Numbered from the stretch's first letter, positions 2,944 through 56,952 are shown. The stretch is 64,000 nt of DNA from an uncultured Alphaproteobacteria bacterium (GCA_934216505.1 CAKQBW010000001.1:85788-149787), one strand, 5' to 3'. Notes: generated by a model from the letters alone, not told the origin. Numbers and translations: made by a program.

Positions 2944-3016
2944 GGACGAATTTAATCAATTCACGGAAAGCACCTGAATTTTTTTATCGGGTGCTTTTTC
3001 TTTTGGGAAGAACACG

Positions 3017-3566: not shown

Positions 3567-3645
3567 AAAATAAATAAAGTCATTGACATTTGATGAAAAA
3601 ATCAGTATTCTAACCCACATATTATTCATAATGAAAGGAATTAAA

Positions 3646-9846: not shown

Positions 9847-10125
9847 TTATTTTTGATTTAATGCGTTTAAAACGGATTTTCCTGCTTTGAATAAGGGAAC
9901 ATTTTTTTCTTGAACTAAAACTTGAGCTCCAGTCTTCGGGTTTCTACCCATTCTTGCCTTTCTCGTACGAGGATAAAAAACACCAAATTTTCTGAGTTCA
10001 ACACGTCCCCCCTTCATCAAAGTTGTTTTGATTTCATCAAAAATAACCTCTATTACCATTTTGGCATTTTTTTTGCTTAAATCAGTTTTATCAGATAATT
10101 TATTAATGAGTTCAGATTTAATCAT
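9847..10125 (-). CDS. ihfB: integration host factor subunit beta (HU/IHF family)
   Basis: ELRKFGVF…GRNPKTG…VPLFKAGK matches the IHF-beta consensus. Confidence 0.7.
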   Translation of the reverse strand: MIKSELINKLSDKTDLSKKNAKMVIEVIFDEIKTTLMKGGRVELRKFGVFYPRTRKARMGRNPKTGAQVLVQEKNVPLFKAGKSVLNALNQK

Positions 10126-10149
10126 TTTCTTCTCCTTGTTAAGGGTATT

Positions 10150-13339: not shown

Positions 13340-13348
13340 TTTATCTCC

Positions 13349-13627
13349 TTATTTTGCTGCGTTTTCAATGACATAATTCCAAAAAGGATTGGCGTATAAA
13401 ATTAAAACAGTAATCACGAAAGAATAAATCGCGGTTGATTCAATCATTGCCATTGAAACGAACAAAGTCCGTGTAATATTGGAAGACTCATCAGGTTGTT
13501 GTGCCATCGCCTTTAAAGCATTGGCCGCTGCATTTCCTTCTCCTAATCCCGCAGAAATGCCCCCAATGGCAATACATAACGCTGCCGAAAAAACAGAAAC
13601 AGCACCAATTAAAGAAATTCCGTCCAT
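13349..13627 (-). CDS. atpE: ATP synthase c subunit with Na+-binding signature
   Basis: Two-helix hairpin. Helix 1 has GLGEG (Glu where H+ rings have Q or other residues). Helix 2 has ESTAIY (E, S, T and Y ligands as in Na+-binding c-rings). Confidence 0.8.
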   Translation of the reverse strand: MDGISLIGAVSVFSAALCIAIGGISAGLGEGNAAANALKAMAQQPDESSNITRTLFVSMAMIESTAIYSFVITVLILYANPFWNYVIENAAK

Positions 13628-13628
13628 T

Positions 13629-14327
13629 TTAATTCTCCTTTGTTGTATCGGTTATTGTTTGAAAAGGCTTTTGTGGGGCTACTGCCGATACATATACAAT
13701 AGCCAAAAGCGCAAAGATGTAGGCTTGAATCGTCCCTGTAATTAACCCTAATAATTGCATGGGGAGAGGGACGAGAAAAGGAACAAGCATAAGTAAAACA
13801 CTGGAAATAACCGCCCCGCTTAAAACATTTCCATACAAACGAAACGCCAAGGAAAAGCATGATGAAAAATCACTGATAATGTTCATCGGAGCCATCACAG
13901 GAGTGGGTTCAATAAATTTTTTAAAATACCCTTTTACGCCTCCGTTTTTGATGCCGTAATAAGGAATAGCAAAAAAAACACAGCAAGAAAAAGCAACAGT
14001 GGTGGTCAAACTGCCTGTGGGGGATTTAAACCAAGGAATAATAGATAACAAATTACACATTGCAATGAAAAAGAAAAATGTCCCGATAATCGCCATATAT
14101 TTGATGGGATTATCGCCAGAAACCTCTTTGATTTGATTTTCTATGGCTGATACAATCATTTCCAATAAAACTTGGGTTTTCCCTGGATTATGCGTTTTTA
14201 AACGGGCCGTCAGGACATAACAAAAAACGAAAAGCAAAAACATGACAATCCAAGTATAAAAAACGGTCGCATTGATATCCAATGTGGCAAGAGAAAATAA
14301 AATTGTCTTATCCAAATTTTCTACCAT
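13629..14327 (-). CDS. atpB: ATP synthase a subunit
   Basis: Polytopic membrane protein with the a-subunit conserved Arg region (LAFRLYGNV). Confidence 0.8.
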   Translation of the reverse strand: MVENLDKTILFSLATLDINATVFYTWIVMFLLFVFCYVLTARLKTHNPGKTQVLLEMIVSAIENQIKEVSGDNPIKYMAIIGTFFFFIAMCNLLSIIPWFKSPTGSLTTTVAFSCCVFFAIPYYGIKNGGVKGYFKKFIEPTPVMAPMNIISDFSSCFSLAFRLYGNVLSGAVISSVLLMLVPFLVPLPMQLLGLITGTIQAYIFALLAIVYVSAVAPQKPFQTITDTTKEN

Positions 14328-14621
14328 TTATTTCACTTTCCCCTTTTTGACTTTGAACACGAAAATAGAGCGCATAACCATAAATCCCAAGATAAAAGGC
14401 AACAATTTCATCATTTCCCATTTCGTTAAAATAAAAGTAATTAAAACGAATAACCCCAGCCTTATTATTGTTGTTAAAAATAAATAGACGCCTTTTTTAT
14501 TGATGGTATTCAATTTCTTGACAGATGCCAACAACAACAGACAATAACCATACCCTACGGCGGCACCCAGTAAAATAAATTCCAAAAGAAGGGATAAAGA
14601 AATGTCAATGCTTTTTGTCAT
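14328..14621 (-). CDS. atpR: AtpR-like small membrane protein of N-ATPase operons
   Basis: 97 aa with two TM helices, each containing an Arg (IIRLGLFV, MVMRSIFV). It sits between atpQ and atpB. Confidence 0.6.
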   Translation of the reverse strand: MTKSIDISLSLLLEFILLGAAVGYGYCLLLLASVKKLNTINKKGVYLFLTTIIRLGLFVLITFILTKWEMMKLLPFILGFMVMRSIFVFKVKKGKVK

Positions 14622-14911
14622 TTTTCCCCTTTGTTATTTGAAAGGATCTTTTTAGCCATATATTGGCGTTAATTAAACCGATAATAAATCCCAAAATAAT
14701 GAAATTTAACTGCCACGAAAGTAAGTCATGAGGAAACAGATGATCCAGATAAGACCCCAACAAAATGCCCCCTAAAACAGGCAAAGCCACCTGAAATCCA
14801 TAAATACTAATCACAGATGCATTATAAAAGAAAGTGCGTGATTTTCGTTTTTGACGATACTCTGTTTTCTTAATCAGTTGAGATTCTGTGCGTTTAAGAT
14901 GTTTTTGTAAA

Positions 14912-14919
<8 letters not shown>
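14605..14919 (-). CDS. atpQ: AtpQ / AtpI-like membrane protein of N-ATPase operons
   Basis: 104-aa hydrophobic protein between atpC and atpR. Confidence 0.55.
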
Positions 14920-16737
<1,818 letters not shown>

Positions 16738-29882: not shown

Positions 29883-30581
29883 TTATTTCATGTGTATTAA
29901 AAAAAAGCTGATAAAAGCGGCAACCCCTAGGGCAGGGCCATAGGCTCCCTTTTTATGGATATTTAAAGCAGAAAAGAGGACAAAAAATAAAAATGATAAA
30001 ATTAAGGTGCTACTCAATCCAATCACCCCTAACCATGACCCTAAGGCGGTAATCATTTTAACATCGCCACAGCCCAATTCTTTTTTAGGTGAAAAAGCCA
30101 AAGCTAGTACAGACAAAATGGAAACAAGGTAGCCACTAAAAGCTCCCGCTAAGGCCATTTCAACGGAAAAAGAAGCGGATTGGGTGGCAAACAAAATTCC
30201 CAATAATAAAAGGGGGAGGGTGAAAAAATCAGGTAAAAGGCAATACAGTGCATCTACAATGATGGAAGCACATACAATCCATATAAAAAGACATGCTAAA
30301 ATCTGTAAGGGGGCAGGAATCAATAAGGAGACCAAAGCAAAAAGAACTGCACATAAACCTGCCCAAAAAAGGCCCCAATAGTAAAGTTTATTTCTGATTT
30401 TTTTCCACAGTAAATAGCGTTGTTCGTTTTTTTTATGGGGGATTCTGGGGCGATGAAACAAACGCAAAATAATTTCACCTGGATCGGCGGGAATCAACTT
30501 TCCAAACCTTCCCGAAAAAAAGGGGAGGATGAAACCCAATAGCATGCCCCATACAGCAAAAAGAATAATTTTGTTTTCCAT
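29883..30581 (-). CDS. A24-family prepilin peptidase (no N-terminal methyltransferase or zinc domain)
   Basis: Polytopic membrane protein with LGCGDVKMITALGSWLG, matching the second catalytic Asp region GGGDVKL of type IV prepilin peptidases. Confidence 0.6.
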   Translation of the reverse strand: MENKIILFAVWGMLLGFILPFFSGRFGKLIPADPGEIILRLFHRPRIPHKKNEQRYLLWKKIRNKLYYWGLFWAGLCAVLFALVSLLIPAPLQILACLFIWIVCASIIVDALYCLLPDFFTLPLLLLGILFATQSASFSVEMALAGAFSGYLVSILSVLALAFSPKKELGCGDVKMITALGSWLGVIGLSSTLILSFLFFVLFSALNIHKKGAYGPALGVAAFISFFLIHMK

Positions 30582-38428: not shown

Positions 38429-39223
38429 ATGACAAAAAAAACTGAAGAAAAGCCCCAATTAGTTCGCCAAGATGCTGATTTGCTGAACCCCATTGTCTCT
38501 ACTTGGACATATAAAGGAGAGATTATGGAGTTTATGGGGGTAAAGAGAACCCGCACCTTTGAAACAATGGACCACCCTGATTATGAACGAGGGGTGGGAT
38601 TCCGGGAACAAGAAGTTTGGATCCCCCGCCCTGGTCCAATGAAAGTCTTTAATAAAGATGGACTTTTAATTGAAGAAGGTACAGTAGATTTCGTTAAGGC
38701 TAAAGATGATATTGGCTCATGGAATTTGACTTATGTTGGGAAAATGACACGTTATGGCTATGATAAAAAGGGGAAACTTTTGTATCGTAGGGAAAGTGAA
38801 TTTTCACCTAAAGATTCTCATATAGAATGGAGTAAGCATTATGACAAAGAGGGTCAATTAGTAAGTGAATCCACTTATGATAAATACGGCAAGGAACGTT
38901 CATTTAAATTTTTTAACTCAGATTCAGGGGAACTAAGTTTCCGCACTTTTAATTCAAAGAGCGGGAAAGGCTATTATTTCTTTGGTGAGGAAAAAGCGGA
39001 TAAAAATCACCCTGAAGCACAGCGTTTAATTCGGGACAATATCGCCAGCAAGAAAACAGATAAAAAAGCACGGCGGGCCGCTTTAAAGGAAATTTTGGCG
39101 GCACGGCAAGAGGGGCAGACAGAAAAAGCACAAGAAATTCGTCATGAATTTGATAAAAGACCTCTACCAAAACCCTCTTTATGGGGTAAATTGACGACTC
39201 TTGTTAAAGGTAATCGGCGTTAA
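38429..39223 (+). CDS. MORN / YwqK-family repeat protein
   Basis: Tandem Y-x-x-G-x-x-x-G-x-W repeats (YGYDKKGKLLY, YDKEGQLVSESTY, YDKYGKERSF). The C-terminus is Lys/Arg-rich. Confidence 0.5.
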   Translation: MTKKTEEKPQLVRQDADLLNPIVSTWTYKGEIMEFMGVKRTRTFETMDHPDYERGVGFREQEVWIPRPGPMKVFNKDGLLIEEGTVDFVKAKDDIGSWNLTYVGKMTRYGYDKKGKLLYRRESEFSPKDSHIEWSKHYDKEGQLVSESTYDKYGKERSFKFFNSDSGELSFRTFNSKSGKGYYFFGEEKADKNHPEAQRLIRDNIASKKTDKKARRAALKEILAARQEGQTEKAQEIRHEFDKRPLPKPSLWGKLTTLVKGNRR

Positions 39224-39242
39224 AAAAGGAAAATCTTTTTTT

Positions 39243-39275
39243 AGGGAGGGCATTTGCCCTCCCCTTTTTGGGGTT
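39243..39275 (+). terminator. rho-independent terminator after the YwqK-family gene
   Basis: GGGAGGGCATTTGCCCTCCC hairpin followed by TTTTT. Confidence 0.7.
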
Positions 39276-39504
39276 ATTCTGCCCCACTCTGTCATTCCCT
39301 CACTTTTTACTTTTCCTATCATTTCCGCCGATGCGGGAATCTCGTCAAAAAGTACTTTATTTTACAAGATACCCGATCAGGTCGGGCATGACAATTCCCT
39401 GTTTTGGCCTGTATTTATGGGCTGTGTGAGGGAAAAAGAGAAATTTCAAAAAGCGGGGGTAAAAACAGGCGATAAAGCCCGTCAATAAAGGGAAGTAAGG
39501 TATA

Positions 39505-39524
39505 ACAAAAAGGATCGTTTTTGT
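39505..39524. promoter_or_regulatory. palindromic candidate operator site 1 (ACAAAAAgGATCGTTTTTGT)
   Basis: Near-perfect 20-bp palindrome centred on GATC, about 170 bp upstream of the pilin-like gene A. Confidence 0.4.
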
Positions 39525-39637
39525 CAATATACTTTTTCCCGTGTTTGAGGATTTTTATTATTTTACAATAACATATTGATTTTACATGAGAAAACACTCA
39601 TTTTAAAGTTTGATGGAATTGTCCTTTTTCCCCTATT

Positions 39638-39657
39638 CCAAAAACGATCGTTTTTGT
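39638..39657. promoter_or_regulatory. palindromic candidate operator site 2 (cCAAAAAcGATCGTTTTTGT) overlapping the putative -35/-10 of pilin-like gene A
   Basis: 18 of 19 positions match site 1. The AAAAACGATCGTTTTT core is a perfect palindrome. Centre-to-centre spacing to site 1 is about 133 bp. A TATAGT -10 candidate lies at 39658-63 and GGGAG RBS at 39683-87. Confidence 0.45.
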
Positions 39658-39694
39658 TATAGTAATTTTCATTCAATTTTGTGGGAGATTTTAC

Positions 39695-40942
39695 ATGCAA
39701 AAAACAAATGAATCAGGGCGCAGTATGGTTGAAATGCTGGGCGTGTTGGCGATTATTGGCGTCCTCTCTGTCGGTGGCGTAGCGGGATTTAACCTTGCCA
39801 TGAATAAACATTGTGCTAATAATACTGTGGTCTATGTCAATCAGTTAGCTGTCCAAGGAACAAGTCAAATGCTGATGGGCGTAAAACCTTCTTTGGGGCA
39901 ATACCCTGACAAAACTCCCAGTGGATACCCGAGTACCCTCACGACAGAAGAAACTAATCCCAATGCTTTTTATGTAAAAATATCTCAAGTGCCGAGCGCT
40001 GTTTGCAAGCAAATCTTAGGTCTTCAAAAAGGGTGGCAGGCCGTCAATGACATTGGCTTTTATAATGGGGCAACGACTTGCGATGACAAAGAAAATGTGG
40101 ATATGTGGTTTGAAATTAAATCTTCCCTGAATAAAGAAAATGAAAATGTCCATTGTAAATCTCATCAGGATTGTTATAACTGGTTAGGATATGAGGCCCG
40201 TTGTTCTCCCAAAGGAATTTGTCTCCCATACTGTGGAGAAAATCAAGTTAAAACACCCGTTGGTTGTTGTGATAAAAATCGTGTTTTCAATGGTGGCTGT
40301 TGCATAAGTGATGTTATTGAAGAAAACGGCATTAAAAAATGCTGTGCCGCCAATGCTGATGTTTCTATTTGTTGCCCTGAAAACGAATGGGGAATCAATA
40401 TAAAGGGTGTTTTATCATGCATCTCTTGTGATGATCCTCGTGCTTTAGACAGCGGCTTTAGTTGGGGGTATTGTAAAGTTTGCCCTAACCGTCTTCGTAA
40501 TGCGAACCAATGTGCTCTCGGTTGCGCAGATCCATACGCCGTCAAAACATTAAGTGGATATTGCTATTGTCCAATGGACAGGCCTGTCCAAACACGTGAT
40601 GGAAAATGCCATCCCTGTCATTATGAAGAACGTAGTTCTGCCCAACCTGTTATAGGCATGCTTACCTTAGGGAGTCAAGGCATGATACACTACTGTAATC
40701 GTCGTGGCATAACCTACTCTTGGCCCTGTATTGAGGGAGAGGTCGGTATGGCTAAAAATGATACTCTTGCCATGGCAGATGGGAGCACCTATACCGCAAC
40801 CACAACGGAAGGCGCCTGTCTGGCCTGTGATACAGTGAATATTTCAAAACTCCCCTATCAAGCCCAATGTGAATCTTGTGGGGGACACTGGGACGGTGAA
40901 AATTGGTACACAGGCGTTTGTGTGCCAAAAGAAACAGACTAA
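39695..40942 (+). CDS. type IV prepilin-like Cys-rich secreted/surface protein, paralog A
   Basis: N-terminus MQKTNESG|RSMVEMLGVLAIIGVLSVGG (Gly, Glu at +5, hydrophobic helix), 23 aa identical to paralog B. Shares the VCKQILGL… block with paralogs B and C. The C-terminal ~280 aa contain about 40 Cys (CC and CxxC clusters). Confidence 0.55.
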   Translation: MQKTNESGRSMVEMLGVLAIIGVLSVGGVAGFNLAMNKHCANNTVVYVNQLAVQGTSQMLMGVKPSLGQYPDKTPSGYPSTLTTEETNPNAFYVKISQVPSAVCKQILGLQKGWQAVNDIGFYNGATTCDDKENVDMWFEIKSSLNKENENVHCKSHQDCYNWLGYEARCSPKGICLPYCGENQVKTPVGCCDKNRVFNGGCCISDVIEENGIKKCCAANADVSICCPENEWGINIKGVLSCISCDDPRALDSGFSWGYCKVCPNRLRNANQCALGCADPYAVKTLSGYCYCPMDRPVQTRDGKCHPCHYEERSSAQPVIGMLTLGSQGMIHYCNRRGITYSWPCIEGEVGMAKNDTLAMADGSTYTATTTEGACLACDTVNISKLPYQAQCESCGGHWDGENWYTGVCVPKETD

Positions 40943-40998
40943 TTCCTTGAAATAATTTGATTTTTCCATAAAAAAAGCCCCGTTCAGAGGCTTTGAAA

Positions 40999-41073
40999 TG
41001 GTGGGTGCGACAGGGATTGAACCTGTGACCCCTACCGTGTGAAGGTAATGCTCTCCCGCTGAGCTACGCACCC
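40999..41073 (-). tRNA. tRNA-Val (anticodon CAC)
   Basis: Minus-strand cloverleaf: acceptor GGGTGCG/CGCACCC, D-arm GCTC AGCGGGA GAGC, anticodon loop TTCACAC, T-arm ACAGG TTCAATC CCTGT, encoded CCA. On the minus strand a terminator hairpin plus T-run follows at plus-strand coordinates 40970-40994. Confidence 0.85.
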
Positions 41074-41145
41074 AAGTTCAATACTCAGGATTATAATATA
41101 AAGACTTTTATATGTCAAGCAAAAAAAACGCTCTTTCAAATTTTT

Positions 41146-41718
41146 TTGTTGAAAAATAATTTTGTATATGATAATTATAAAACTTATTTACACAAAAGAG
41201 GACAAATGAAAATTGAATTTAAAAATACTGATTCTTTTGAAAATCTGATAAGCACTATGAAAAAGGAAGATGAAATTGAATGCCCTGCTTTGGATTTTAT
41301 GGCGCAAAATTTAAAAGAATTACAAGAACGAATCAAGGCTGTGATTTCTTTGGGGGGCACCGTTTATTTCGTTAAGGAAAATTTAAGGTTTTCCCCCGAA
41401 AAGACACCTCAACAAGAAATGTTGTTTCACCTGTTAGAGGTCTTTAAAAACTTTGAGCAGGAAAATATCTTAAAAAGGCGGCGATTGGGAATTCAAAAAG
41501 CCAAAGAACAAGGAAAGTATGCCAAAGAACGGCGAAAAAAACTGCCCTCGGATTTACAAGAGGCCCTCTTAAAAGACAGAGAAAACGGCTTAAATGTATC
41601 GGAAATCATCCAAAAATACAAAATAAGCCGAAAGACATTTTATAACTATTCAAAAAATTCAACAAATAACATTTTAAAAAACATAGGCATTTTGTTGGGC
41701 AATGACTTGAAAGAATAA
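41146..41718 (+). CDS. serine recombinase (resolvase/invertase) family remnant: C-terminal half of the catalytic domain plus HTH, N-terminally truncated or degenerate
   Basis: LDFMAQNLKELQERIKAVISLGGTVYFV…EMLFHLLEVFKNFEQENILKRRRLGIQKAKEQGKYAKERRKK aligns with the LDRLGR…AEFERxxIxERTxxG region of Tn3/gamma-delta resolvases. The C-terminal …SEIIQKYKISRKTFYNY is the recombinase HTH. The N-terminal YxRVSTxxQ Ser-nucleophile block is absent. Adjacent to tRNA-Val. Confidence 0.55.
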   Translation: MLKNNFVYDNYKTYLHKRGQMKIEFKNTDSFENLISTMKKEDEIECPALDFMAQNLKELQERIKAVISLGGTVYFVKENLRFSPEKTPQQEMLFHLLEVFKNFEQENILKRRRLGIQKAKEQGKYAKERRKKLPSDLQEALLKDRENGLNVSEIIQKYKISRKTFYNYSKNSTNNILKNIGILLGNDLKE

Positions 41719-41721
41719 AAG

Positions 41722-42099
41722 TTATTGATTTTGATTAGCCAAGAATCTTTTTTGACGTTCTACATAGACTTGATAACTGTTCCAGTCTGCTTGAATTTCC
41801 TCAGAAAGTTCCTGAGCATAAGTTTGAAAATAAGCATTGGCTTTTATTCTTAACAACGATTTTTCTTTGTTTCCAGGTATTTCTGGCCCGTCCCAAGGCA
41901 AAGCCACGATGGCTTTTTCTTTGGTGGCCAAATTAAAATGAACATCACCAATAGCCAATGTCTTTTCAAAAGAAAGGTTGTGATTCCTTAAATAATCACG
42001 GTGAGAACATTCCCGCCCTTTTGAATCACGATTTTGACTTTTCGCCCAAATGGCAATCACTAATTCATTGTTTTCGTTGCCTGCGACGATATATCTCAT
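41722..42099 (-). CDS. hypothetical protein (125 aa), no family recognised
   Basis: ORF with reasonable coding statistics, convergent with the recombinase remnant. Confidence 0.35.
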   Translation of the reverse strand: MRYIVAGNENNELVIAIWAKSQNRDSKGRECSHRDYLRNHNLSFEKTLAIGDVHFNLATKEKAIVALPWDGPEIPGNKEKSLLRIKANAYFQTYAQELSEEIQADWNSYQVYVERQKRFLANQNQ

Positions 42100-42802: not shown

Positions 42803-43882
42803 CTATTGACATAATGCGTAGAAGGTGCTGTAACGAGGGATGCCGTTCATGCTCTGACTGAAGGTACGGACGCCGAGTGCGTAGCTAGAATCATGACTGT
42901 TATTCGTCCAATAATAAGAACTCCCAAAAGCCACTTTCAAAGCGTTCCAGTCCGCCCCTGTACAATTACTCCCAGAACAATAACCAGTTTCATTATTATA
43001 TCCTCCCGTAATCCCTAAGTCAGAGAGCAAAGCTAAACTTTTTCCATGCGCCAAACACCAATTGCGTGCGGCCCACCAAGATATACCACTAGAAGAATAC
43101 AAAAATGTTTTGCCATTATAGGTTGTTTCTGTCCCATTGTCTAATGCTATACAGGTACCTGTTGTCGGAACAGCACCATTCTCCCATTTTCCCGTAATTT
43201 GACAATACTTCCCTGCTTCTTTACAATCGGCATTTGTCGTGCAATCCCCTGTGAGGTCTGTCTTACATTCCCCGTTTCCAGAGTTATCGCTCGGTTGCCA
43301 AATGCCTTCAGCACATTGACAGTAGCCATTCACACAAGTGGCCCCACCCGAACAACTGTCTGTGCATTCATCGCCTTTGGGCCCTGATGGCGCAGGGTCG
43401 TTGGGGGACAAATCGTTATTATAGGTAATCGTGGTACAACCGTCATCAATCTTTCGGATAATCCCATTTTCTCCTTTCATGGCTTTCATTTGGGTACAAA
43501 CTTCGTCTGGGACATTTTCCAAGGTCAAACTAAAACGCTTATCAGTATTTTTATTCCAATTGGCTAAGCCCGTAAATTTCGCCCCGCCAACTTCGTTATC
43601 TGTGAATTCGCCCGGTGTCGGAGCCTCAGCCCCTCTTTGAATCTGTGTGGAAACTACGACTGCCCGAAGGGAAGCTTGTTGCAACAATTCATTTGCCCGA
43701 TGTTTATTCATGGCGGTGGTATAGCCCACTATACCGCCCACACTTAAAACCCCAATAATCGCCAAAACGCCCAGCATTTCCACCATAGACCGCCCTGATT
43801 CTTCTTGCCGATAAAGGCGGGCGCCAAAAAGATAATGTTTTCCCCTACCCGAAAAGACTTTTTCTTTAATTGGACTTTTCAT
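42803..43882 (-). CDS. type IV prepilin-like Cys-rich protein with C-terminal C-type-lectin-like domain, paralog B (start codon uncertain)
   Basis: Contains …ESG|RSMVEMLGVLAIIGVLSVGG, identical at the protein level to paralog A. Has RAVVVSTQIQ and VCTQMKAM…DDGCTTITYNNDL blocks shared with paralog C, then an EGF-like Cys-rich stretch. The C-terminus has a GISWWAARNWCLAHGKSLALLSDL…YYWTNNSHD…YALCQ pattern resembling a C-type lectin-like domain (WxxAxxxCxxxGxxLAxxxS…C-terminal Cys). Confidence 0.5.
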   Translation of the reverse strand: MKSPIKEKVFSGRGKHYLFGARLYRQEESGRSMVEMLGVLAIIGVLSVGGIVGYTTAMNKHRANELLQQASLRAVVVSTQIQRGAEAPTPGEFTDNEVGGAKFTGLANWNKNTDKRFSLTLENVPDEVCTQMKAMKGENGIIRKIDDGCTTITYNNDLSPNDPAPSGPKGDECTDSCSGGATCVNGYCQCAEGIWQPSDNSGNGECKTDLTGDCTTNADCKEAGKYCQITGKWENGAVPTTGTCIALDNGTETTYNGKTFLYSSSGISWWAARNWCLAHGKSLALLSDLGITGGYNNETGYCSGSNCTGADWNALKVAFGSSYYWTNNSHDSSYALGVRTFSQSMNGIPRYSTFYALCQ

Positions 43883-45386: not shown

Positions 45387-46253
45387 ATGATTGAAGCACT
45401 GCGTCAATACTTACAAGGTATTTTTGGAGATTCAGGCTTGTCATGGGCTAGTTTTTTGACACAAATAGCCCTTATCATTGCTGTCCTTTTCTTTCTTTAT
45501 ATAAAAGTCATTAAAGATTCCCCTGCCGAAAAAACGGTTAAAGGCGTGGTTATTTTTTTATTTTCTTTGTGGATTTTATCTGAAGTCTGCTCTCTTTTCC
45601 ATTTGAGAATTTTAAGTGCAATGTTCAGAAATTTAATTCTATTACTTATCTTATCTGGGGTTGTCTTACTTCAACCAGAATTACGCCGATTAATGGCAAG
45701 GTTGGGAAATAACATTTCCCTGATGACCCCCATTAAAAAGAGTCAGATTAAACCAGATTTAATCAATGTTCTAATTCCTACTATCGCTTATTGGCGTAAA
45801 ACAAAAACAGGGGCTCTTTTGGTTTTGGAAAACCAAGAACCTGTTTCTAGTATTACGAATGCAGGTTTTCAATTAGACGCTCTTTTGTCCAGCGAATTGC
45901 TCATCAATCTTTTTTTTATCAATACACCATTGCACGATGGGGCTGTTTTGATTAAAAATGGCCGTATTATTTCAGCGGGATTGATACTTCCTTTGGCCAA
46001 AGATATCACCTTAAGTTGGCAATATGGCACACGCCATCGGGCGGCAATCGGCCTTACCGAAAATGTAGATGCCCTATGTGTGGTTGTTTCTGAAGAAACA
46101 GGCTCGGTCTCTTTGGTTAAAAATGGGAAAGCAAAAACCTATACAGATATGCTTGAATTGGAAAAAGAATTAAAGACTTTCTTATCCCCTTTAACCAAAA
46201 AAGAAACAACGAAATCTTTATGGCAAAAAATTAAAGAATTAGGAAAAAAATAA
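45387..46253 (+). CDS. cdaA: diadenylate cyclase CdaA-type (three N-terminal TM helices plus DAC domain)
   Basis: DAC-domain motifs DGA (LHDGAVLI) and GTRHRAA (YGTRHRAAIGLTE). N-terminal membrane anchor as in CdaA. Confidence 0.7.
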   Translation: MIEALRQYLQGIFGDSGLSWASFLTQIALIIAVLFFLYIKVIKDSPAEKTVKGVVIFLFSLWILSEVCSLFHLRILSAMFRNLILLLILSGVVLLQPELRRLMARLGNNISLMTPIKKSQIKPDLINVLIPTIAYWRKTKTGALLVLENQEPVSSITNAGFQLDALLSSELLINLFFINTPLHDGAVLIKNGRIISAGLILPLAKDITLSWQYGTRHRAAIGLTENVDALCVVVSEETGSVSLVKNGKAKTYTDMLELEKELKTFLSPLTKKETTKSLWQKIKELGKK

Positions 46254-46255
46254 AC

Positions 46256-46284
46256 TTGACACAAAAGGAATCATTCGCTAGTAT
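46256..46284 (+). promoter_or_regulatory. sigma70 promoter (TTGACA-17-TAGTAT) for the SucC-like gene
   Basis: TTGACA at 46256-61 and TAGTAT at 46279-84. A GAGGAGA RBS precedes the ATG at 46303. Confidence 0.55.
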
Positions 46285-46302
46285 TGCTCAGACGAGGAGA
46301 AA

Positions 46303-47442
46303 ATGGAACTACACGAATACTATGTTAAAGAGATTTTGAAAAATGCAGGGCTTCCTGTTTTAAAAGGGAAAGTAGCCTATACTTCAGAAGAAGCCTGCAA
46401 TATCGCTTTAGGGATTGGCGGAAATTCTTTTTGGGTAAAGCCTCAGTTAATTACTTCTTTTCAACCTTACAAGCGGGAAGAATTGACCGAGAAGTATTCG
46501 GCGACAAGCCCTCAAGAAACAGAACAAAAAGCCAAACAAATTTTGGGAAGTTCTTATTTGGCTCAACATAATTCCATATCAACAACGATACAAAGAATTT
46601 ATGTGGAACAAGCATTGGACTTACCTTTGTTTTGTGGTGTTTGTTTGCGGGTTGATTTTGAAAAATCTGGGCTTTCTTTATCGGTAAAAAATGCTCAAAA
46701 AGGTATTCTTTCCTATTTTTTACAGGATTTTACTTTTGATAACGAGGTGAAAAAGCAAATCAATCAAAACCTTAATTTAAAAAATCCACTATTAAAGAAA
46801 AATTTTTGGAACTTGATTGTCAAAATGTATCGTTTGTTTAAAAAATATGAAATGATGGCGATTGAATTAAATCCTATTGTGCGTCAAGGGAATAATTTGA
46901 TTATTGAAAATGCACGGTTGATTTTTGATCCAGATGCCCTCTTTCGCTTTCCTGAATTGATTCATTGTCGGGAAATTAAATTGGGCCACGAACGAGAGGC
47001 TTTGGCCAAAAAAAATGCTTTTCGTTATACAAAATTAAATGGAAATATCGCTTGCTTAGTCAATGGGATTGGGTTGGGCGCAGCCAGTGTTGATTTAATT
47101 CAATCACAAGGGGAAAAAGTGGCCTGTTTATTAGATGTGGGAACAGAACCAAATGTGAAATCAATTACAACGGCCATGCGCTTGGCGTTGGCTGAGCCCA
47201 ATGTAGATGCAATCTTCGTCAATATCTTTGGGGGAACGACCAGTTGCAAGGTGATTGCACAAGGGCTTTTAGATGCAGCCGTTGAAATTCCTGTTGGTGT
47301 TCCTGTGATTATACGGTTAGCTGGATTAGAGGCAGAAGACGGTAAAAAACTTTTAAGTTTATCCAAAGTCCCGTTTAAAATTGTCTCTCAAATGATTAAA
47401 GCCGTTGGGGAATTGAAACAAGAATTAAAGGAGAAAAAGTAA
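46303..47442 (+). CDS. succinyl-CoA synthetase beta-subunit-like ATP-grasp protein, highly divergent
   Basis: N-terminus MELHEYYVKEILKNAGLPV matches SucC (MNLHEYQAKQLF…GLP). The conserved VKxQVHAGGRGKxGGV phosphate-binding loop is replaced by VKPQLITSFQPYKREEL. Confidence 0.5.
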   Translation: MELHEYYVKEILKNAGLPVLKGKVAYTSEEACNIALGIGGNSFWVKPQLITSFQPYKREELTEKYSATSPQETEQKAKQILGSSYLAQHNSISTTIQRIYVEQALDLPLFCGVCLRVDFEKSGLSLSVKNAQKGILSYFLQDFTFDNEVKKQINQNLNLKNPLLKKNFWNLIVKMYRLFKKYEMMAIELNPIVRQGNNLIIENARLIFDPDALFRFPELIHCREIKLGHEREALAKKNAFRYTKLNGNIACLVNGIGLGAASVDLIQSQGEKVACLLDVGTEPNVKSITTAMRLALAEPNVDAIFVNIFGGTTSCKVIAQGLLDAAVEIPVGVPVIIRLAGLEAEDGKKLLSLSKVPFKIVSQMIKAVGELKQELKEKK

Positions 47443-48320
47443 TGTTTATCCTGCCCGATTCTAAAACGCCCGTTTTATTCCAAGGAATTACCAGCGAATC
47501 TGGTTTATTGCACCTGAAAAAATCTTTGGATTATGGGACAAATGTTGTGGCGGGAATCAGTGCCCAAACACGACACAAAAGCCTGATGGGCGTACCTGTT
47601 TTTTCCCATATCAGTCAAGCCATGAAAAAATTTCACCCTCAAGTCAGTGTTATTTTTTCTACCCCTCCTCATGCTTTAGATGATGTGTTGGCGGCTGTGA
47701 AAGCCAAGATTCCACTTGTGATATGTACAACGGAACATGTTCCCATGCATGATTCTTTAAAGATGAAATGGGCGGCCCAAAAATATGGGGTTGTTTTATT
47801 GGGACCGTCCAGCAACGGGATTATTTCCGTTGATGATGTTTTAGTGGGCACACTCCCCCCTCACCTTTTTCAATCAGGCTCCGTAGGGATTATTAGTCGT
47901 TCGGGGTCTTTGGTCTTTGAAGCCATTCAACTTTTGAAAGAAAATAATTTGGGAATCTCTAAATGCATTACTTTGGGTACAGACCATTTAATTGCAACGG
48001 ATTTTATTCCTGTGGTTCAGGCTCTATTAAAAGATAAAAAAACAAACCAAATATTGATTATAGGGCAAGTTCATGGCCAACATGAATACGAGTTAGCCTC
48101 TTTTTTAAAAAAGTGTCGCACAAAAAAGAAAATTTATTCTTATATTCCTGGAAAAACATTGATTCGTTCAGATAAATTACCTTTATTGGGGATGCAGTCA
48201 GTGTTGTTTTCTGATGTGATTTCAAAAAAGAACGCCACTTTAAAGGCCGCAGGTGTTTATTGTATTGATTCCGTGGATAAAATAGGTTCTGTCATCAGAA
48301 AGGGAGAAAGAAACAAATGA
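47442..48320 (+). CDS. succinyl-CoA synthetase alpha-subunit-like CoA-binding protein, divergent (catalytic His motif not found)
   Basis: The CoA-binding N-domain and ISRSGSL motif are recognisable. No GHAGA active-site His motif: the aligned region reads LLGMQSVLF. Confidence 0.5.
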   Translation: MFILPDSKTPVLFQGITSESGLLHLKKSLDYGTNVVAGISAQTRHKSLMGVPVFSHISQAMKKFHPQVSVIFSTPPHALDDVLAAVKAKIPLVICTTEHVPMHDSLKMKWAAQKYGVVLLGPSSNGIISVDDVLVGTLPPHLFQSGSVGIISRSGSLVFEAIQLLKENNLGISKCITLGTDHLIATDFIPVVQALLKDKKTNQILIIGQVHGQHEYELASFLKKCRTKKKIYSYIPGKTLIRSDKLPLLGMQSVLFSDVISKKNATLKAAGVYCIDSVDKIGSVIRKGERNK

Positions 48321-48862
48321 ACTTTCCAGAAGCCTTAACAGTTAAAATTTCCCATGATTTAGCTGGGGGTATTGGTGCCCTTTCCAGCACGGCAGATTTA
48401 ATGGAATTAGATCCTTCTTTTACTTCAGAAGCCCCCGCCATGCTTAAAAAGAATACACAAATGCTGATGGCTCGGTTAAAATTTTATCGGGCGTTATTTG
48501 GGGCGGATACAAAATCCATTGACAGTTCTTTGGTTTTTGATTTTTTAAATACTTTTGGAATGCCGATTACCTTTTCGGGAAAAATCGCCACACGACTAGA
48601 ACTTTCGTTCGTAGCGTTGGGCATACAAATAGTGGCAGGTGGAGGAGATATTTTATATTCAAATAACACTTTAATTTTAAAGTCTAACAATTTGATAATA
48701 AAAGAAAATATAAAAAATATTCTCTCGGGACGTGTTTTAAAATCCAGTGCCATTGAAACATTGGAAGCCGAATGGCTTATCAGACAATTAAACGATAAAA
48801 AAATGGCCCTAAAGATAACTTCAAATCCTGATTTTATAAAAATGGAAATTTATCACCCCTAA
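48317..48862 (+). CDS. ChpT-like histidine phosphotransferase (HisKA-like dimerisation/His box, no kinase ATP-lid motifs)
   Basis: KISHDLAGGIGALSSTADLMELD resembles the ChpT/HisKA H-box (HDLxxPxxAIxxxxELL). 181 aa. Overlaps the stop of the upstream gene. Confidence 0.45.
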   Translation: MNFPEALTVKISHDLAGGIGALSSTADLMELDPSFTSEAPAMLKKNTQMLMARLKFYRALFGADTKSIDSSLVFDFLNTFGMPITFSGKIATRLELSFVALGIQIVAGGGDILYSNNTLILKSNNLIIKENIKNILSGRVLKSSAIETLEAEWLIRQLNDKKMALKITSNPDFIKMEIYHP

Positions 48863-48950
48863 AATTCTTGCCTCTTAGGCAAATTTTTCTTGCTTTTTAA
48901 AGGGGATTTTGGCATAATAAAACATGTTTTATTTATGAAAGGAATCAATA

Positions 48951-51900
48951 ATGTCTGATAAACAAAAATTCTACCCTGATTTAAATGCAAAAATGAACTT
49001 TCCAAAGATGGAAGAAGATATTTTAAAATTATGGGATGATGAACGAATTTTTGAAACGGTTAAAGATGCCCGTAAAAATGGAGAAGAATTTGTTTTTTAT
49101 GATGGCCCTCCGTTTGCCAATGGGCAACCCCATTATGGACATATTTTTGTTTCCTATATTAAAGACACTTTGGCTCGCTTTCAAACGATGCTTGGGAAAA
49201 AGGTGGAACGCCCCTATGGGTGGGATTGCCATGGATTGCCCGCCGAAATGAATGCCGAAAAAGCTTTAGGAGTATCAGGACATAAGGCCATTGAAGAATA
49301 TGGTGTAGCCAACTTCAACAACTATTGTCGTCAAGATGTCCTGAAATACTCAGGTGTTTTTAAGGACCTGTTCCATCGGATTGGGCGATGGATTGATGAC
49401 ACAAAAGAATATCGCACAATGGACCTTTCTTTTATGGAATCTGTTATCCATAACTTTAAATCCCTCTATGAAAAAGGCCTCGTCTATCAAGATTTCCGTG
49501 TGCAACCTTATTCTTGGGCGGCCCAAACAACCGTCTCTAATTTTGAAGTGGCACAAGCCTATCGCGAGAAAACAGATACCGCTATCACTGTCATGTTTAA
49601 ATTAGAAAACGGCATGAACATGTTGGTTTGGACAACCACACCTTGGACACTGCCCAGCAATTTAATGTTGGCCGTTGGGGCTGATATTGATTATGCCATT
49701 ATGGAGGAAGAAGGTCAAAAATATGTTTTAGCAGGGGCCCTTAAAAAACGCTATGAAAAACAACTGGCCCATGCCACACAAGTCGCCACCATGAAGGGGA
49801 AAGAATTTGTGGGAATGAGTTATACCCCCATGTATCCTTTCTTTGCTGATCTCAAAGAAAAAGGCTGTTTTAAGGTTTTAGCGGGGGATTTTGTTTCGGT
49901 GGAAGATGGGACAGGGATTGTGCATATTGCGCCAGGGTTTGGGGCCGATGACTTTAATGTTTGTCGTCAATACAATCCTGATTTTCCTATTGTTTGTCCC
50001 GTAGATGAAGCGGGCTGTTTTACCGCAGAAGTTCCCGATTATCATGGCAAACAAGTTTTTGATGTCAATGAATTAGTGATTCAATGGCTCAAAGAAAATC
50101 GCCTGTTGGTAAAAAAAGAACAAATCACCCATACTTATCCTTATTGCTGGCGAACAGATACCCCTTTAATTTACAAAGCGATGAGCGGGTGGTTTGTAGA
50201 TGTCCCCAAATTCCGTGACGAATTAGTCAAACTAAACAAAGAAATTGAATGGACGCCAGAACATATCAAAGAAGGGCGCTTTGGCAAATGGTTGGAAGGG
50301 GCCCGTGAATGGTCTATTTCTCGCAGCCGTTTTTGGGGATCTCCTCTGCCCGTTTGGCAATCTGACAATCCTGCTTATCCACGGACAGATGTTTTCGGGT
50401 CTTTGGCTGAAATCAAACAAGCCACAGGCATTGATGTCAGAGATTTACACCGCCCTATGATTGACGAGGTAGTCTATCCTAATCCTGATGATCCATCGGG
50501 AAAAACAATGATGCGCCGGGTACCAGATGTTTTTGATTGTTGGTTTGAGTCGGGTTCTATGCCCGAAGGTCAAATCCACTATCCTTTTGAAAAAAAAGAA
50601 TGGTTTGAAAATCATTTCCCTGCCGATTTTATTGTGGAAGGGGTGGATCAAACACGGGGTTGGTTTTATTCTTTGCATGTGCTAGGAACGGCTTTACATC
50701 ATAAGCCGGCCTTTAAGCATTGTATGGTCACAGGATTGGTAATGGCCGAAGGGGGCGTAAAAATGTCCAAAAAATTGGGCAACTACCCTGATCCTTACAT
50801 TATTTTAAATCAATCTGGATCAGATGCGATGCGCTGGTTTTTGGTTTCTTCTGGGATTGTCCATGGGGGAAATGTGTGCATGGACTACCAAGGTAAAGAA
50901 GTTGTCAAAACAATGCGTCAGGCTTTGATGCCTTTGTGGAATGCTTATTATTTCTTCTGCTTATATGCTAATGCGGAAGGAGTGAAGGCAAAACTCGTTC
51001 ATACCTCTAACGATGTTTTGGATCGCTATATTTTAGCAAAAGTAAAAGATTTGACCAATGAAATCAAACAGGAAATGTTGGCCTATGACACCCAAATGGC
51101 TTGCGAAAAAATAGCCGTCTTCTTGGATATTTTGAACAATTGGTATATTCGTCGCTCTCGTGAAAGATTCTGGGACGGCACAGATCAAGAAGCCTTTGAT
51201 ACGCTTTACACCGTTTTGGTTGATGTGTCCAAAATTGTGGCCCCTCTCTTGCCCTTTATGGCCGATTATATCTATCAAGGATTGACGGGGGAAAAATCTG
51301 TTCATTTAGTTTTATGGCCTGATGTCAGTGCTATTTCAGATGAAACTGAATTGAAAAATCAAATGGATTTTGTGCGCTCTATTTCCTCTACTGCTAAATC
51401 TATTCGTGAAGAACACCATTTGCGTAATCGGTTGCCGTTGGCGTCCATGACAATTGCTGGGGAAAAAGCCAATACTTTATCTGATTTTATTGAAGTGATG
51501 AAAGACGAAGTCAATGTAAAAGAAATTATTTTAAACACGGATGTGGAATCAGTTGCCTCCAAGTTTTTATACTTAAAAACGCCCCTCATTGGAAAGCGTT
51601 TAGGGGGAGTGATGGGGGCAATTATGGCCGCCAACAAACAACATCAATGGTCTTTAAACTCAGAAGGTACTTTATCCATCGGAGGGCAAACATTAATGCC
51701 TGATGAATTTGAATTGCGCCTGACAATGAAAGAAGGATTATCAGGACAACCTTTGACCGACAATACGGCCGTTGTGCAACTGGATACAACTGTTCGTCCT
51801 GAATTGGAGCGCGAAGGAATCGCTCGTGATTTTGTGCGCATGATTCAACAAAGGCGTAAAGACAAAAATTTTGATGTATCAGACCGAATTTCTTTGGTGT

Positions 51901-52061
51901 ATCAGACCGATTCTGATGAAATCAAGCAAGCCTTACAGGAACATAAAGACTATATTATGGAACAGGTCTTGGCGATTCGTTTTGACGCCACAAAGACACC
52001 TTTTGAAAAGTCAGAAGAATTGGGGAATTCCACCCTCACCTTTGATATTCAAAAGGCTTAA
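48951..52061 (+). CDS. ileS: isoleucine--tRNA ligase (1036 aa, length and motifs consistent with the eukaryote-like type 2 form)
   Basis: Class I HIGH-type motif (PHYGHIF), KMSKKLGN, and the WTTTPWTLPSN editing-domain motif. Confidence 0.85.
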   Translation: MSDKQKFYPDLNAKMNFPKMEEDILKLWDDERIFETVKDARKNGEEFVFYDGPPFANGQPHYGHIFVSYIKDTLARFQTMLGKKVERPYGWDCHGLPAEMNAEKALGVSGHKAIEEYGVANFNNYCRQDVLKYSGVFKDLFHRIGRWIDDTKEYRTMDLSFMESVIHNFKSLYEKGLVYQDFRVQPYSWAAQTTVSNFEVAQAYREKTDTAITVMFKLENGMNMLVWTTTPWTLPSNLMLAVGADIDYAIMEEEGQKYVLAGALKKRYEKQLAHATQVATMKGKEFVGMSYTPMYPFFADLKEKGCFKVLAGDFVSVEDGTGIVHIAPGFGADDFNVCRQYNPDFPIVCPVDEAGCFTAEVPDYHGKQVFDVNELVIQWLKENRLLVKKEQITHTYPYCWRTDTPLIYKAMSGWFVDVPKFRDELVKLNKEIEWTPEHIKEGRFGKWLEGAREWSISRSRFWGSPLPVWQSDNPAYPRTDVFGSLAEIKQATGIDVRDLHRPMIDEVVYPNPDDPSGKTMMRRVPDVFDCWFESGSMPEGQIHYPFEKKEWFENHFPADFIVEGVDQTRGWFYSLHVLGTALHHKPAFKHCMVTGLVMAEGGVKMSKKLGNYPDPYIILNQSGSDAMRWFLVSSGIVHGGNVCMDYQGKEVVKTMRQALMPLWNAYYFFCLYANAEGVKAKLVHTSNDVLDRYILAKVKDLTNEIKQEMLAYDTQMACEKIAVFLDILNNWYIRRSRERFWDGTDQEAFDTLYTVLVDVSKIVAPLLPFMADYIYQGLTGEKSVHLVLWPDVSAISDETELKNQMDFVRSISSTAKSIREEHHLRNRLPLASMTIAGEKANTLSDFIEVMKDEVNVKEIILNTDVESVASKFLYLKTPLIGKRLGGVMGAIMAANKQHQWSLNSEGTLSIGGQTLMPDEFELRLTMKEGLSGQPLTDNTAVVQLDTTVRPELEREGIARDFVRMIQQRRKDKNFDVSDRISLVYQTDSDEIKQALQEHKDYIMEQVLAIRFDATKTPFEKSEELGNSTLTFDIQKA

Positions 52062-52185
52062 GAGTAGGAAGCCCCTTATTGTAGGGGGGCTTCCTTTATT
52101 TTTGCTTTTCCTATAAAACCCCATTAAAATGTTTTTGCTTGCTTTTTCCAAAAAGTTAATATATAGTTAATAAAGAGGTGATTTT

Positions 52186-52869
52186 ATGTATGTACTCGTT
52201 ATTGAAGACGATAAAATTGTCAATGAAAATATATGCTTTCTTTTGCGTAAAGAAGGGATAAAATGCGAAATGGCCTGTACAGGGAATGATGCTTTAAAAC
52301 TCATTCAAGTTTATAATTATGATTTAATTGTATTGGATTTAATCCTCCCTGATATTCACGGATTAGAGGTTTTAAAGAAAATTCGAGCGGACAACATCAC
52401 AACACCTGTTTTGGTATTATCAGGACTATCTTCCCCTAATACGAAAGTGGAAAGTCTTGCCTGCGGGGCTGATGATTACATCGTAAAACCCTATGAAAGA
52501 AGCGAACTGGTGGCCCGAATCAAAGCCATTGTTCGTCGCAGTAAAGGCCTTTCTAAACAGGCGATTCCCCTTGGAAATATGCAGATTTTAATGGACAAAA
52601 AAGAAGTTTTTATTAAGGATAGCCCCTTAAATCTGACCTCCATGGAATATGAATTAGTGGAATTATTGGCTCTTAACAAAGGAAAAACTTTAAGTAAAGA
52701 ATTTCTATTGGATCAACTTTATGGCGGCATTGATGAACCAGAAATAAAAGTATTAGATGTTTTTGTATGTAAAATCAGGAAAAAAATTAAAAAAATAGAT
52801 AAAGAATCCGATTATATAAAAACCGTTTGGGGACGGGGTTACACAATAGAACTTCCCTCAAAAAATTAA
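52186..52869 (+). CDS. ctrA: OmpR-family response regulator, CtrA-like
   Basis: The receiver domain with phospho-acceptor Asp ([11 protein letters not shown]) and a winged-helix C-terminus aligns closely with CtrA: LDLNLPDMSGYEVL…TPILILSG…GADDY…KPF…[13 protein letters not shown]. Confidence 0.65.
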
Positions 52870-56199: not shown

Positions 56200-56952
56200 T
56201 CAAGTTTTATTTTCTATAATCAAGCCGTCATAGCCAGGAAAAACATTCTTAGGCAAACTTTTTGTTAAAGTTTCATAATCCATGTGCAATCCCAAATGTG
56301 TTAAATAGGCCCTTTTCGGGGCTAATTTTTCAATCCATTTCAACGCCAGTTCTAAATGAACATGTTTTTTATTTTCTTTTGTGGAAGGACAGCCCAAAAT
56401 CCACGTGTCAATTCCCTTTAAAGTTTCCCACCCCTTTTCCGTCATAGACTTTAAATCTGTAGAATAAGCAACATCCCCTATCCTGTAACCCACAGAAGTA
56501 ATATTCCCGTGTTTTTGGGGCACAGGCACAATGTTTAAATCTCCTATTTGAAAAGTATGATACATTTTTAAAGGTTTCATTTGAAACAAATCCTCCTTTT
56601 TAAAAACATAATCAAACTTATCTAACAAAGTTTCAATATCTTTCTTTTGTGCATACACATCAAGATGCTCTTTTCTGTCTAAAATCATTTTCTTGATATC
56701 TTCTGCCCCGCCACAATGATCATAATGAATATGAGTATAAAGCAATGCATCTAAGTGAGGGGCGTTTTGCGCCCAAAGTTGTGCTTTAATTTCTGGGGAA
56801 GTATCAATTAAAAGAGTGGTCTTTTTTTCTTGAACTAAAATAGAACTTCTGGTCCTGATGTTTTTAGGGTTTGAAGCATCACAATCACCAAAACCTCGTG
56901 TCAGCGAAGGAATTCCATAAGACGGTCCCGACCCCATAATTGTAATTTTCAT
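56200..56952 (-). CDS. MBL-fold metallo-hydrolase
   Basis: HxHxDH zinc motif (HIHYDHCGG). Confidence 0.7.
   Translation of the reverse strand: MKITIMGSGPSYGIPSLTRGFGDCDASNPKNIRTRSSILVQEKKTTLLIDTSPEIKAQLWAQNAPHLDALLYTHIHYDHCGGAEDIKKMILDRKEHLDVYAQKKDIETLLDKFDYVFKKEDLFQMKPLKMYHTFQIGDLNIVPVPQKHGNITSVGYRIGDVAYSTDLKSMTEKGWETLKGIDTWILGCPSTKENKKHVHLELALKWIEKLAPKRAYLTHLGLHMDYETLTKSLPKNVFPGYDGLIIENKT

Follow-up and report, generated by a model that had tools for sequence, protein, structure and literature searches.

A succinyl-CoA synthetase-like gene pair beside chpT

We analysed a stretch of 64,000 nucleotides (nt) from an uncultured Alphaproteobacteria bacterium (GCA_934216505.1 CAKQBW010000001.1:85788-149787; "the window" below is this whole stretch, with positions counted from its first letter), which carries a block of genes for a diadenylate cyclase (cdaA), for homologues of the two subunits of succinyl-coenzyme A (CoA) synthetase (SCS) that we call sucC' and sucD', and for a ChpT-type histidine phosphotransferase. 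A previous reading of the DNA by itself (the sequence-only reading) had placed four open reading frames (ORFs) of these kinds on the + strand, and our analysis recovered all four at the same positions. The genes, and the sites within them on which the argument turns, are as follows.

45387-46253, + strand: cdaA, 288 aa, membrane-anchored diadenylate cyclase
46303-47442, + strand: sucC', 379 aa, SCS beta-subunit homologue with a degenerate ATP-grasp half
46444-46479, + strand: former Gly-rich phosphate loop of sucC', QLITSFQPYKRE in place of QVHAGGRGKAGG (from alignments to Protein Data Bank (PDB) chains)
47442-48320, + strand: sucD', 292 aa, SCS alpha-subunit homologue without the phospho-histidine
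48063-48077, + strand: GQVHG in sucD', in place of GEIGG; the equivalent of Glu208-alpha is Gln209
48177-48209, + strand: former phospho-histidine loop of sucD', LPLLGMQSVLF in place of RMGHAGAII; the His position is Leu248
48317-48862, + strand: chpT, 181 aa, compact histidine phosphotransferase
48350-48379, + strand: H-box of chpT, SHDLAGGIGA (His13)

The four genes had been described as overlapping or abutting, which holds for sucC', sucD' and chpT, where the first junction is a 1-nt overlap (TAATG) and the second a 4-nt overlap (ATGA), and does not hold for cdaA and sucC', which are separated by a gap of 49 nt with a promoter-like TTGACA-17-TAGTAT site inside it. The organism is uncultured and known only from metagenome assemblies; the identical SucD' protein is encoded on 15 contigs from several metagenome samples, with the complete cdaA-sucC'-sucD'-chpT-ileS-ctrA block at all four of the places shown among them, so that the reading frames are not assembly artefacts.

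SucC' and SucD' retain the architecture of SCS and lose its catalytic motifs

Matches to the Pfam domains and NCBIfam models of SucC and SucD cover both proteins over their whole length, at scores well under the curated cutoffs. SucC' matched PF08442 and PF00549 and scored 229 bits with TIGR01016 (cutoff 375.55), SucD' scored 229.2 bits with TIGR01019 (cutoff 353.2), and the domain architecture of SCS is complete, with ATP-grasp_2 and Ligase_CoA in SucC' and CoA_binding and Succ_CoA_lig in SucD'. The catalytic residues are another matter. The sequence-only reading had called, by eye, the loss of the beta-subunit GGRGKxGG loop and of the alpha-subunit GHAGA histidine, and had proposed a profile check of both proteins; HMMER alignments to PDB chains of solved SCS show both losses to be real. 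The SucD' segment "lpllgmqsv" aligns with "rmghagaii", placing Leu248 at the phospho-histidine position, and the SucC' segment "itsfqpykree" aligns with "hvggrgkagg", so that the GGRGKxGG position reads ITSFQPYKRE.

These losses extend across the clade. The phospho-histidine is missing in all 68 of 68 clade members and in loci L003-L011, and in L005 the histidine loop is deleted outright. Comparing 60 clade members with 24 canonical SucD sequences revealed that, among the 128 canonical positions conserved at 90% or more, 46 are kept, 27 have switched to another conserved residue (including H to L248, E to Q209, NC to SS123-124 and G to S18) and 55 are lost, including the CoA-contacting TPGKGG; the NCP motif is also changed. 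In the window, SucD' reads GQVHG, GITSESG, GISAQTRHK and GPSSNG at the sites of GEIGG, GxTGxxG, TPGKGG and GPNCPG, and the clade has conserved motifs of its own (GITS, ICTTEHVP, GPSS, GRSSSL, GQVHG and PLLGM[KQ]SVL). The SucC' family, with more than 110 clusters at 35-99% identity, likewise lacks the Gly-rich loop, the region being variable and indel-rich, and a 12-aa deletion takes out the STEGGxxIE segment, while the equivalents of K46, E99 and E197 and the C-terminal site-I elements NIFGG and VNGxGL are retained. Against solved SCS the N-terminal ATP-grasp half of SucC' scores 27.8 bits and the C-terminal half 128 bits, from which it follows that site II is far more eroded than site I. E. 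coli SucC and SucD sequences served as rulers, and every conclusion drawn from them was cross-checked against the HMMER alignments to PDB chains and against canonical sequences (P0070-P0120, L012).

Judged from its residues, SucC'D' is predicted to be unable to run the SCS reaction, because His has become Leu, Glu208 has become Gln, and TPGKGG, NCP, the ATP-grasp loop and STEGG are lost. It should not be annotated as succinate--CoA ligase, because the defining catalytic features of SCS fail even though the fold is kept. The sequence-only reading had held that a genome with no other sucCD would make this pair the working enzymes; that reasoning is flawed, because the phospho-histidine is absent whether or not a second sucCD exists. 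We also considered a new catalytic or metal site built from the conserved histidines in TTEH, DHL and GQVHG and rejected it: L005-L007 lack the histidines of DHL and QVH, and TEH also occurs in canonical, His-bearing SucD representatives (P0290, P0297, P0306 and P0348).

The pair is maintained by selection and SucD' keeps its predicted fold

Ratios of nonsynonymous to synonymous substitution rates (dN/dS), computed against the 81-83% identical orthologues in L001, were 0.090 for sucC', 0.080 for sucD', 0.104 for chpT, 0.070 for cdaA and 0.038 for ileS, values that are approximate because dS is near saturation (1.4-2.0). The AlphaFold2 (AF2) model of SucD' has a predicted local distance difference test score (pLDDT) of 92.4, with the former histidine loop the lowest among its internal blocks (pLDDT 67), and Foldseek aligned it with E. 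coli SCS alpha (2nua_A) at a template modelling (TM) score of 0.87. Thus sucC' and sucD' are under purifying selection, the predicted SucD' fold is intact and the genes are not decaying. The proposal of the sequence-only reading, that the pair has been repurposed and is not a tricarboxylic acid (TCA) cycle enzyme, agrees with the purifying selection, the clade-wide replacement motifs, the intact predicted fold and the conserved synteny with chpT or divK described next.

SucC'D' genes keep company with chpT or divK across relatives

We collected loci by exact-protein look-ups and one metagenome scan (a single-protein query had given one locus, L001), scored their proteins locally with profiles, and defined a synteny set of 29 distinct His-less sucD' loci, each with 350 nt or more of sequence beyond sucD'. 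For 21 of the 29, chpT is the next gene downstream of sucD', usually overlapping it; the arrangement still occurs where SucC' identity is as low as about 35%, and L009 is among the 21. Four others (L023, L024, L026 and L029) have no downstream chpT and instead carry a DivK-like receiver gene that overlaps the start of sucC', at these positions in the respective loci:

L023, 366-731: DivK-like gene
L024, 4487-4852: DivK-like gene
L026, ends at 1727: DivK-like gene
L029, 548-928: DivK-like gene

The encoded proteins are single-domain and 121-126 aa long, with Caulobacter crescentus DivK (1m5t) as the best PDB match at E 3.5e-40 (139.5 bits over residues 2-119) and PleD next at 76 bits, E 1.5e-20. 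We take the DivK identity from this PDB comparison because NCBIfam returned no DivK-named model for the gene, giving generic receiver matches only, of which a BarA receiver domain was the best. The gene upstream of sucC' changes readily from locus to locus (cdaA, rho, dnaE or murG). At L012 and L036-L038, which are canonical and His-bearing, the DNA recovered shows neither chpT nor divK, and L012, the sole canonical locus with usable flanks, has an mdh-sucC-sucD-sucA-sucB operon. The synteny of SucC'D' genes with chpT or divK is therefore conserved, and inherited gene order alone explains it poorly, because ChpT and DivK belong to one pathway and each overlaps the pair by its codons in a different sub-clade.

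Loss of the catalytic histidine is seen more widely. Among the 150 best cluster representatives for the SucD' profile, about 20 lie outside this clade and lack it (P0292, P0295, P0307, P0312, P0314, P0316, P0328, P0329, P0331, P0340, P0343, P0347, P0350 and others), which suggests repeated and independent loss of the phospho-histidine in SucD homologues of other lineages. At L010, the locus of P0295, a ComF-like gene and not chpT follows the His-less sucD. L009 encodes an "intermediate" SucD' (6001-6894, P0288 cluster) with His replaced by Asn (YMGNIGAIV) and with GEVGS and most of the loop kept; a protein of this type is labelled "succinate--CoA ligase subunit alpha" by NCBI (MBO7333195.1).

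ChpT and a CtrA-like regulator

The fourth gene had been read as ChpT-like, and its predicted structure places it there. In the window its product gives only a weak N-terminal NCBIfam match (NF046025, 25.4 bits, cutoff 225, E 8.5e-6) and no Pfam match, while the profile of its family matches Brucella ChpT (4qpj) at E 2.7e-6 over residues 6-171, its H-box aligns with the ChpT H-box of 4qpj and 4fmt, and 16 of 25 family members match PF10090 at E of 1 or less, the best at 8.7e-7. His13 (SHDLAGGIGA) is invariant in sets of 25 and of 37 aligned sequences. With the AF2 model (pLDDT 92.7) as query, Foldseek ranks 1-7 in the PDB are all ChpT structures (TM 0.76-0.82), histidine kinases reaching at most 0.53. 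Going by the modelled fold and the invariant H-box histidine, the fourth gene is predicted to be a true ChpT.

A ctrA-like gene for an OmpR-family response regulator lies 3.3 kb downstream, beyond ileS; it is listed here with other features in and after the block, the first of them in the gap between cdaA and sucC':

46256-46284, + strand: promoter-like site TTGACA-17-TAGTAT (consensus scan, 10/12 matches; consensus match only)
48868-48882, + strand: weak terminator-like hairpin 3' of chpT (6-bp stem with 3 GC pairs, then a T-run; consensus match only)
48951-52061, + strand: ileS, downstream of chpT
52066-52095: strong terminator-like hairpin 3' of ileS
52186-52869, + strand: ctrA-like OmpR-family response regulator gene, 3.3 kb downstream of chpT

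Promoter-like sites of this kind showed no enrichment over shuffles in the region, and ileS probably forms a transcription unit separate from chpT. The ctrA-like product matches NF045991 (CtrA), by far its best model, at 280.7 bits and E 8.7e-84, under the cutoff of 350. Such a gene occurs near the block in the window, L005, L006 and L009, in the last directly after chpT and convergent with it. Profile scanning of about 45 of the 63 window ORFs of at least 120 aa found no histidine kinase, CckA, DivL and CpdR not having been specifically sought. A perfect CtrA-type box, TTAATATATAGTTAA (TTAA-N7-TTAA), stands at 52156-52170 and ends 16 nt before the ctrA-like start codon. Such boxes are not enriched in the window (6 TTAA-N7-TTAA against 6.7 expected), and this one before ctrA is the only suggestive case.

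cdaA is a lineage-specific neighbour

CdaA scores 201.3 bits with TIGR00159, above the cutoff of 188.8, and matches PF02457 at E 7e-40, with DGA at residues 184-186 (45936-45944), RHR at residues 216-218 (46032-46040) and three hydrophobic peaks within residues 16-97. These features bear out the cyclase motifs and three-segment transmembrane anchor ascribed to it by the sequence-only reading, and by its sequence it is, we judge, a bona fide CdaA. Its grouping with the pair in one conserved unit fared less well. Only in the window, L001, L002, L017 and L019, the closest relatives at 61-83% SucD' identity, does cdaA stand upstream of sucC'; at other loci its place is taken by rho, dnaE, murG or divK. 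Because of this restriction, and because a promoter-like site lies between the two genes, we regard cdaA as a lineage-specific neighbour and not as part of the conserved module. To our knowledge, synthesis of cyclic di-AMP (c-di-AMP) is unusual in Alphaproteobacteria, a point we could not confirm from searchable papers.

The window also encodes, at 56200-56952 on the - strand, a metallo-beta-lactamase-fold protein, whose counterpart in L013-L016 matches PF23023 (Anti-Pycsar Apyc1, a cyclic-nucleotide phosphodiesterase family); from this family match, it may be relevant to cyclic-nucleotide turnover in a CdaA-bearing organism.

Origin of the pair and the host

SucC' and the canonical alphaproteobacterial SucC of L012 share an insertion of about 10 residues in the region of the Gly-rich loop, and because of this shared insertion we trace SucC' to an alphaproteobacterial sucCD. 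The presence of ChpT, CtrA and DivK agrees with the alphaproteobacterial assignment. At 37-2669 the window encodes a NuoF-like flavoprotein fragment followed by a 583-aa [FeFe] hydrogenase with 2Fe-2S and 4Fe-4S domains (HydB/HydA-like), and it also encodes a D-2-hydroxyacid dehydrogenase, while L002 encodes pyruvate:ferredoxin oxidoreductase (PFOR; 9958-13467). No TCA genes were seen with them. Given the hydrogenase and PFOR, the host looks, from its gene content, like an anaerobic, hydrogen-producing fermenter.

Proposed role of SucC'D' and competing explanations

In the explanation that we favour, with a probability of roughly 0.55, SucC'D' is a heteromeric pseudoenzyme derived from SCS; its partner would be ChpT or DivK, and it would influence how phosphoryl groups pass through the DivK/CckA-ChpT-CtrA relay, plausibly as a reporter of a metabolite bound at site I. 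The pair would then be a catalytically dead descendant of an alphaproteobacterial SCS that still folds as one, its two subunits would still form an alpha/beta heteromer, and purifying selection would have kept it as an accessory to the DivK/CckA-ChpT-CtrA cell-cycle phosphorelay. Through the overlapping stop and start codons its production would be tied at a constant ratio to that of ChpT (to that of DivK in one sub-clade). It would most likely bind ChpT or DivK and so modulate phosphoryl flow to CtrA, possibly in response to a metabolite in the better-conserved site I, the succinate and phosphate site formed by the alpha-subunit and the beta C-terminal domain. What we infer here is that the subunits form a heteromer, that this heteromer contacts ChpT or DivK and affects the relay, and that it may have a ligand.

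Several points weigh against this proposal. The case for a regulatory role comes from gene neighbourhood and is circumstantial, and the dN/dS values are, as said, approximate. Neither chpT nor divK is adjacent in L003, an informative locus, nor in L010 and L028, both on short or cut contigs, and in L011 the PF10090 gene lies 4.4 kb downstream. Because every locus is metagenomic and close relatives may be among them, the 21 of 29 counts contigs and not independent evolutionary events. Some of the synteny here is non-functional, because ileS also travels with the block (it follows chpT in L001, L004-L007, L020 and L030, and in L027 it is found about 3.1 kb beyond chpT on the downstream side). 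Part of this would suit an alternative that we hold to be unlikely though worth keeping in view, namely that the pair has a function unrelated to the phosphorelay, such as binding or sequestering a metabolite or a new non-SCS activity, and that its adjacency to chpT or divK reflects inherited order and co-expression: ileS illustrates that conserved order can be non-functional, L003 and L010 do without a phosphorelay neighbour, and the roughly 20 other His-less SucD-like representatives scattered among canonical ones imply that His loss may have several causes. Inherited order nevertheless accounts poorly for a ChpT gene downstream and a DivK gene upstream, each codon-overlapped in a different sub-clade, and cdaA, rho, dnaE and murG turn over upstream while chpT stays. 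We give very little credence to the idea that the genes are decaying sucCD relics in an anaerobe that has lost the TCA cycle, or a working SCS with unusual motifs. The apparently anaerobic, fermentative host ([FeFe] hydrogenase in the window, PFOR in L002) and the NCBI name "succinate--CoA ligase subunit alpha" given to a relative speak for it, but decay is at odds with dN/dS values of about 0.08-0.09, frames intact in dozens of lineages, conserved replacement motifs and a confidently predicted fold, and activity is at odds with the missing phospho-histidine, the loop deletion in L005 and scores far under the curated cutoffs.

Two further possibilities would give the pair a more specific chemistry. 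SCS forms succinyl-phosphate at site I, an intermediate named also in the title of PDB entry 7msr, and one could imagine that the histidine is now supplied in trans, with site I docking ChpT~P (His13) or DivK~P and exchanging the phosphoryl group with a carboxylate or acyl-phosphate, so that the pair would be a metabolic source or drain for the relay. Site I of SCS does the same His~P to acyl~P chemistry as a His-Asp relay, and the acyl-phosphate of DivK~P is chemically close to succinyl-phosphate; the intrinsic histidine is gone while a protein that carries one is translationally coupled; the beta C-terminal domain is the better-preserved half (128 against 28 bits for the ATP-grasp half) and keeps NIFGG and VNGxGL, and the alpha-subunit keeps Ser154 at its helix N-terminus and the TE of ITEG. 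We still find this improbable, as Gln has replaced Glu208-alpha, the residue that supports the histidine at site I, the motifs for binding CoA are lost, the Glu of ITEG is not kept in L005-L007, and the ChpT histidine sits on a helix bundle and not on a mobile loop, making its access to the pocket doubtful. It seems hardly probable, too, that the pair belongs to a c-di-AMP module in which it would regulate CdaA or serve as its receptor, by analogy with CdaR/GlmM of Firmicutes. Such a role would draw on the position of cdaA directly upstream on the same strand in the window, L001, L002, L017 and L019, and pockets of the Rossmann and ATP-grasp types might in principle accommodate a nucleotide, but cdaA is absent from that place in every more distant locus, where sucC'-sucD'-chpT persists, the 49-nt gap with its promoter-like site separates cdaA from sucC', and no recognised c-di-AMP-binding domain was found.

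Implications

How central metabolism is coupled to the CtrA switch in alphaproteobacteria is only partly understood, and the links known, CitA, KidO and GdhZ, were found genetically and could not have been foreseen by reading sequence. In this case a candidate emerges from the genome: an SCS predicted to have lost catalysis, yet retained over long evolutionary times, whose genes overlap chpT or divK. Should SucC'D' bind ChpT or DivK, it would be the first dedicated accessory of ChpT and a clear case of a two-subunit TCA enzyme turned signalling component. Were the histidine indeed supplied in trans, a metabolite pool would directly charge or drain the CtrA phosphorelay, bypassing the sensor kinase, and metabolism would thereby feed into a His-Asp relay in a new way. 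A practical consequence is that wherever His-less relatives are named succinate--CoA ligase, metabolic reconstructions of metagenome-assembled genomes would wrongly credit that TCA step. Although the organisms are uncultured, the idea is testable with four small recombinant proteins. In the searchable literature we found nothing linking ChpT or DivK with SCS, nothing describing an SCS pseudoenzyme and nothing relevant on ChpT or CckA in gut or metagenome-assembled Alphaproteobacteria, and for the genomes of RF32 gut Alphaproteobacteria no metabolic reconstruction.

Other features of the window

An ATP synthase operon lies at 10150-16692 on the - strand, with genes for beta, epsilon, two small membrane proteins (104 and 97 aa), a, c, b, alpha and gamma and none for a delta subunit, an arrangement that we take to be that of an N-ATPase (atpDCQRBEFAG). 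Its 92-aa c subunit has an ESTxxY motif resembling those of Na+-binding c rings, and the window holds no second, classical F-type ATP synthase operon. A 359-aa protein encoded at 42803-43882 on the - strand has a type-IV-pilin-like N-terminus (MVEMLGVLAIIGVLSVGG), a Cys-rich C-terminal part and no family match, and a gene for a prepilin peptidase is present at 29883-30581. In L024, secreted Cys-rich proteins with CGCPDGG...CCK repeats are encoded in tandem (2084-4236). Beside genes for tRNA-Cys, tRNA-Asn and tRNA-Val, the region 38429-42099 contains several ORFs without a family match, along with a truncated resolvase-domain ORF (41146-41718); the region may represent a small integrated element or what is left of one.

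Comparison with known systems

SucC'D' resembles SCS SucCD (E. coli 1SCU/2SCU; TIGR01016/TIGR01019) in its two-gene order, coupled translation and domain architecture, and in a predicted alpha fold that is the same (TM 0.87 for SucD'). It differs from SCS in lacking the phospho-histidine, Glu208, the TPGKGG, NCP and GxTG motifs, the GGRGKxGG loop and the STEGG segment, and its genes adjoin chpT or divK, whereas canonical ones sit in an mdh-sucCDAB setting.

The ChpT encoded beside it shares with the Caulobacter (4FMT/4FPP) and Brucella (4QPJ/4QPK) proteins (PF10090) an H-box helical hairpin with a CA-like alpha/beta domain, the invariant histidine and a ctrA-like gene nearby. In contrast to them, the family here is compact, with 172-183 aa where the profiles have 204-211 positions, and shares only 17-18% identity with the solved ChpTs. 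Its gene is joined, usually by overlapping codons, to a dead SCS pair, a linkage that no paper in the searchable literature describes for ChpT.

In Firmicutes, cdaA forms an operon with cdaR and glmM. Like that system, the one described here has a membrane-anchored CdaA with three N-terminal transmembrane segments and the DGA and RHR motifs; unlike it, sucC'D'-chpT lies downstream in place of cdaR and glmM, and the adjacency is confined to the closest relatives.

A possible mode of action for SucC'D' is offered by Caulobacter, where CitA, KidO and GdhZ, all of them metabolic enzymes or homologues of such enzymes, control the CtrA pathway or cell division (PMC7083601). CitA acts on the CtrA pathway independently of catalysis, and KidO, an oxidoreductase homologue, is a negative regulator of that pathway (PMC7083601). 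In these C. crescentus cases, as would hold for SucC'D', a TCA or redox enzyme scaffold provides the link from central metabolism to the activity of CtrA. None of the three comes from a protein family related to SucC'D', however, CitA has kept its enzymatic activity, and no genetic fusion to chpT or divK is seen for any of them. It is from gene neighbourhood that we propose a role for SucC'D'.

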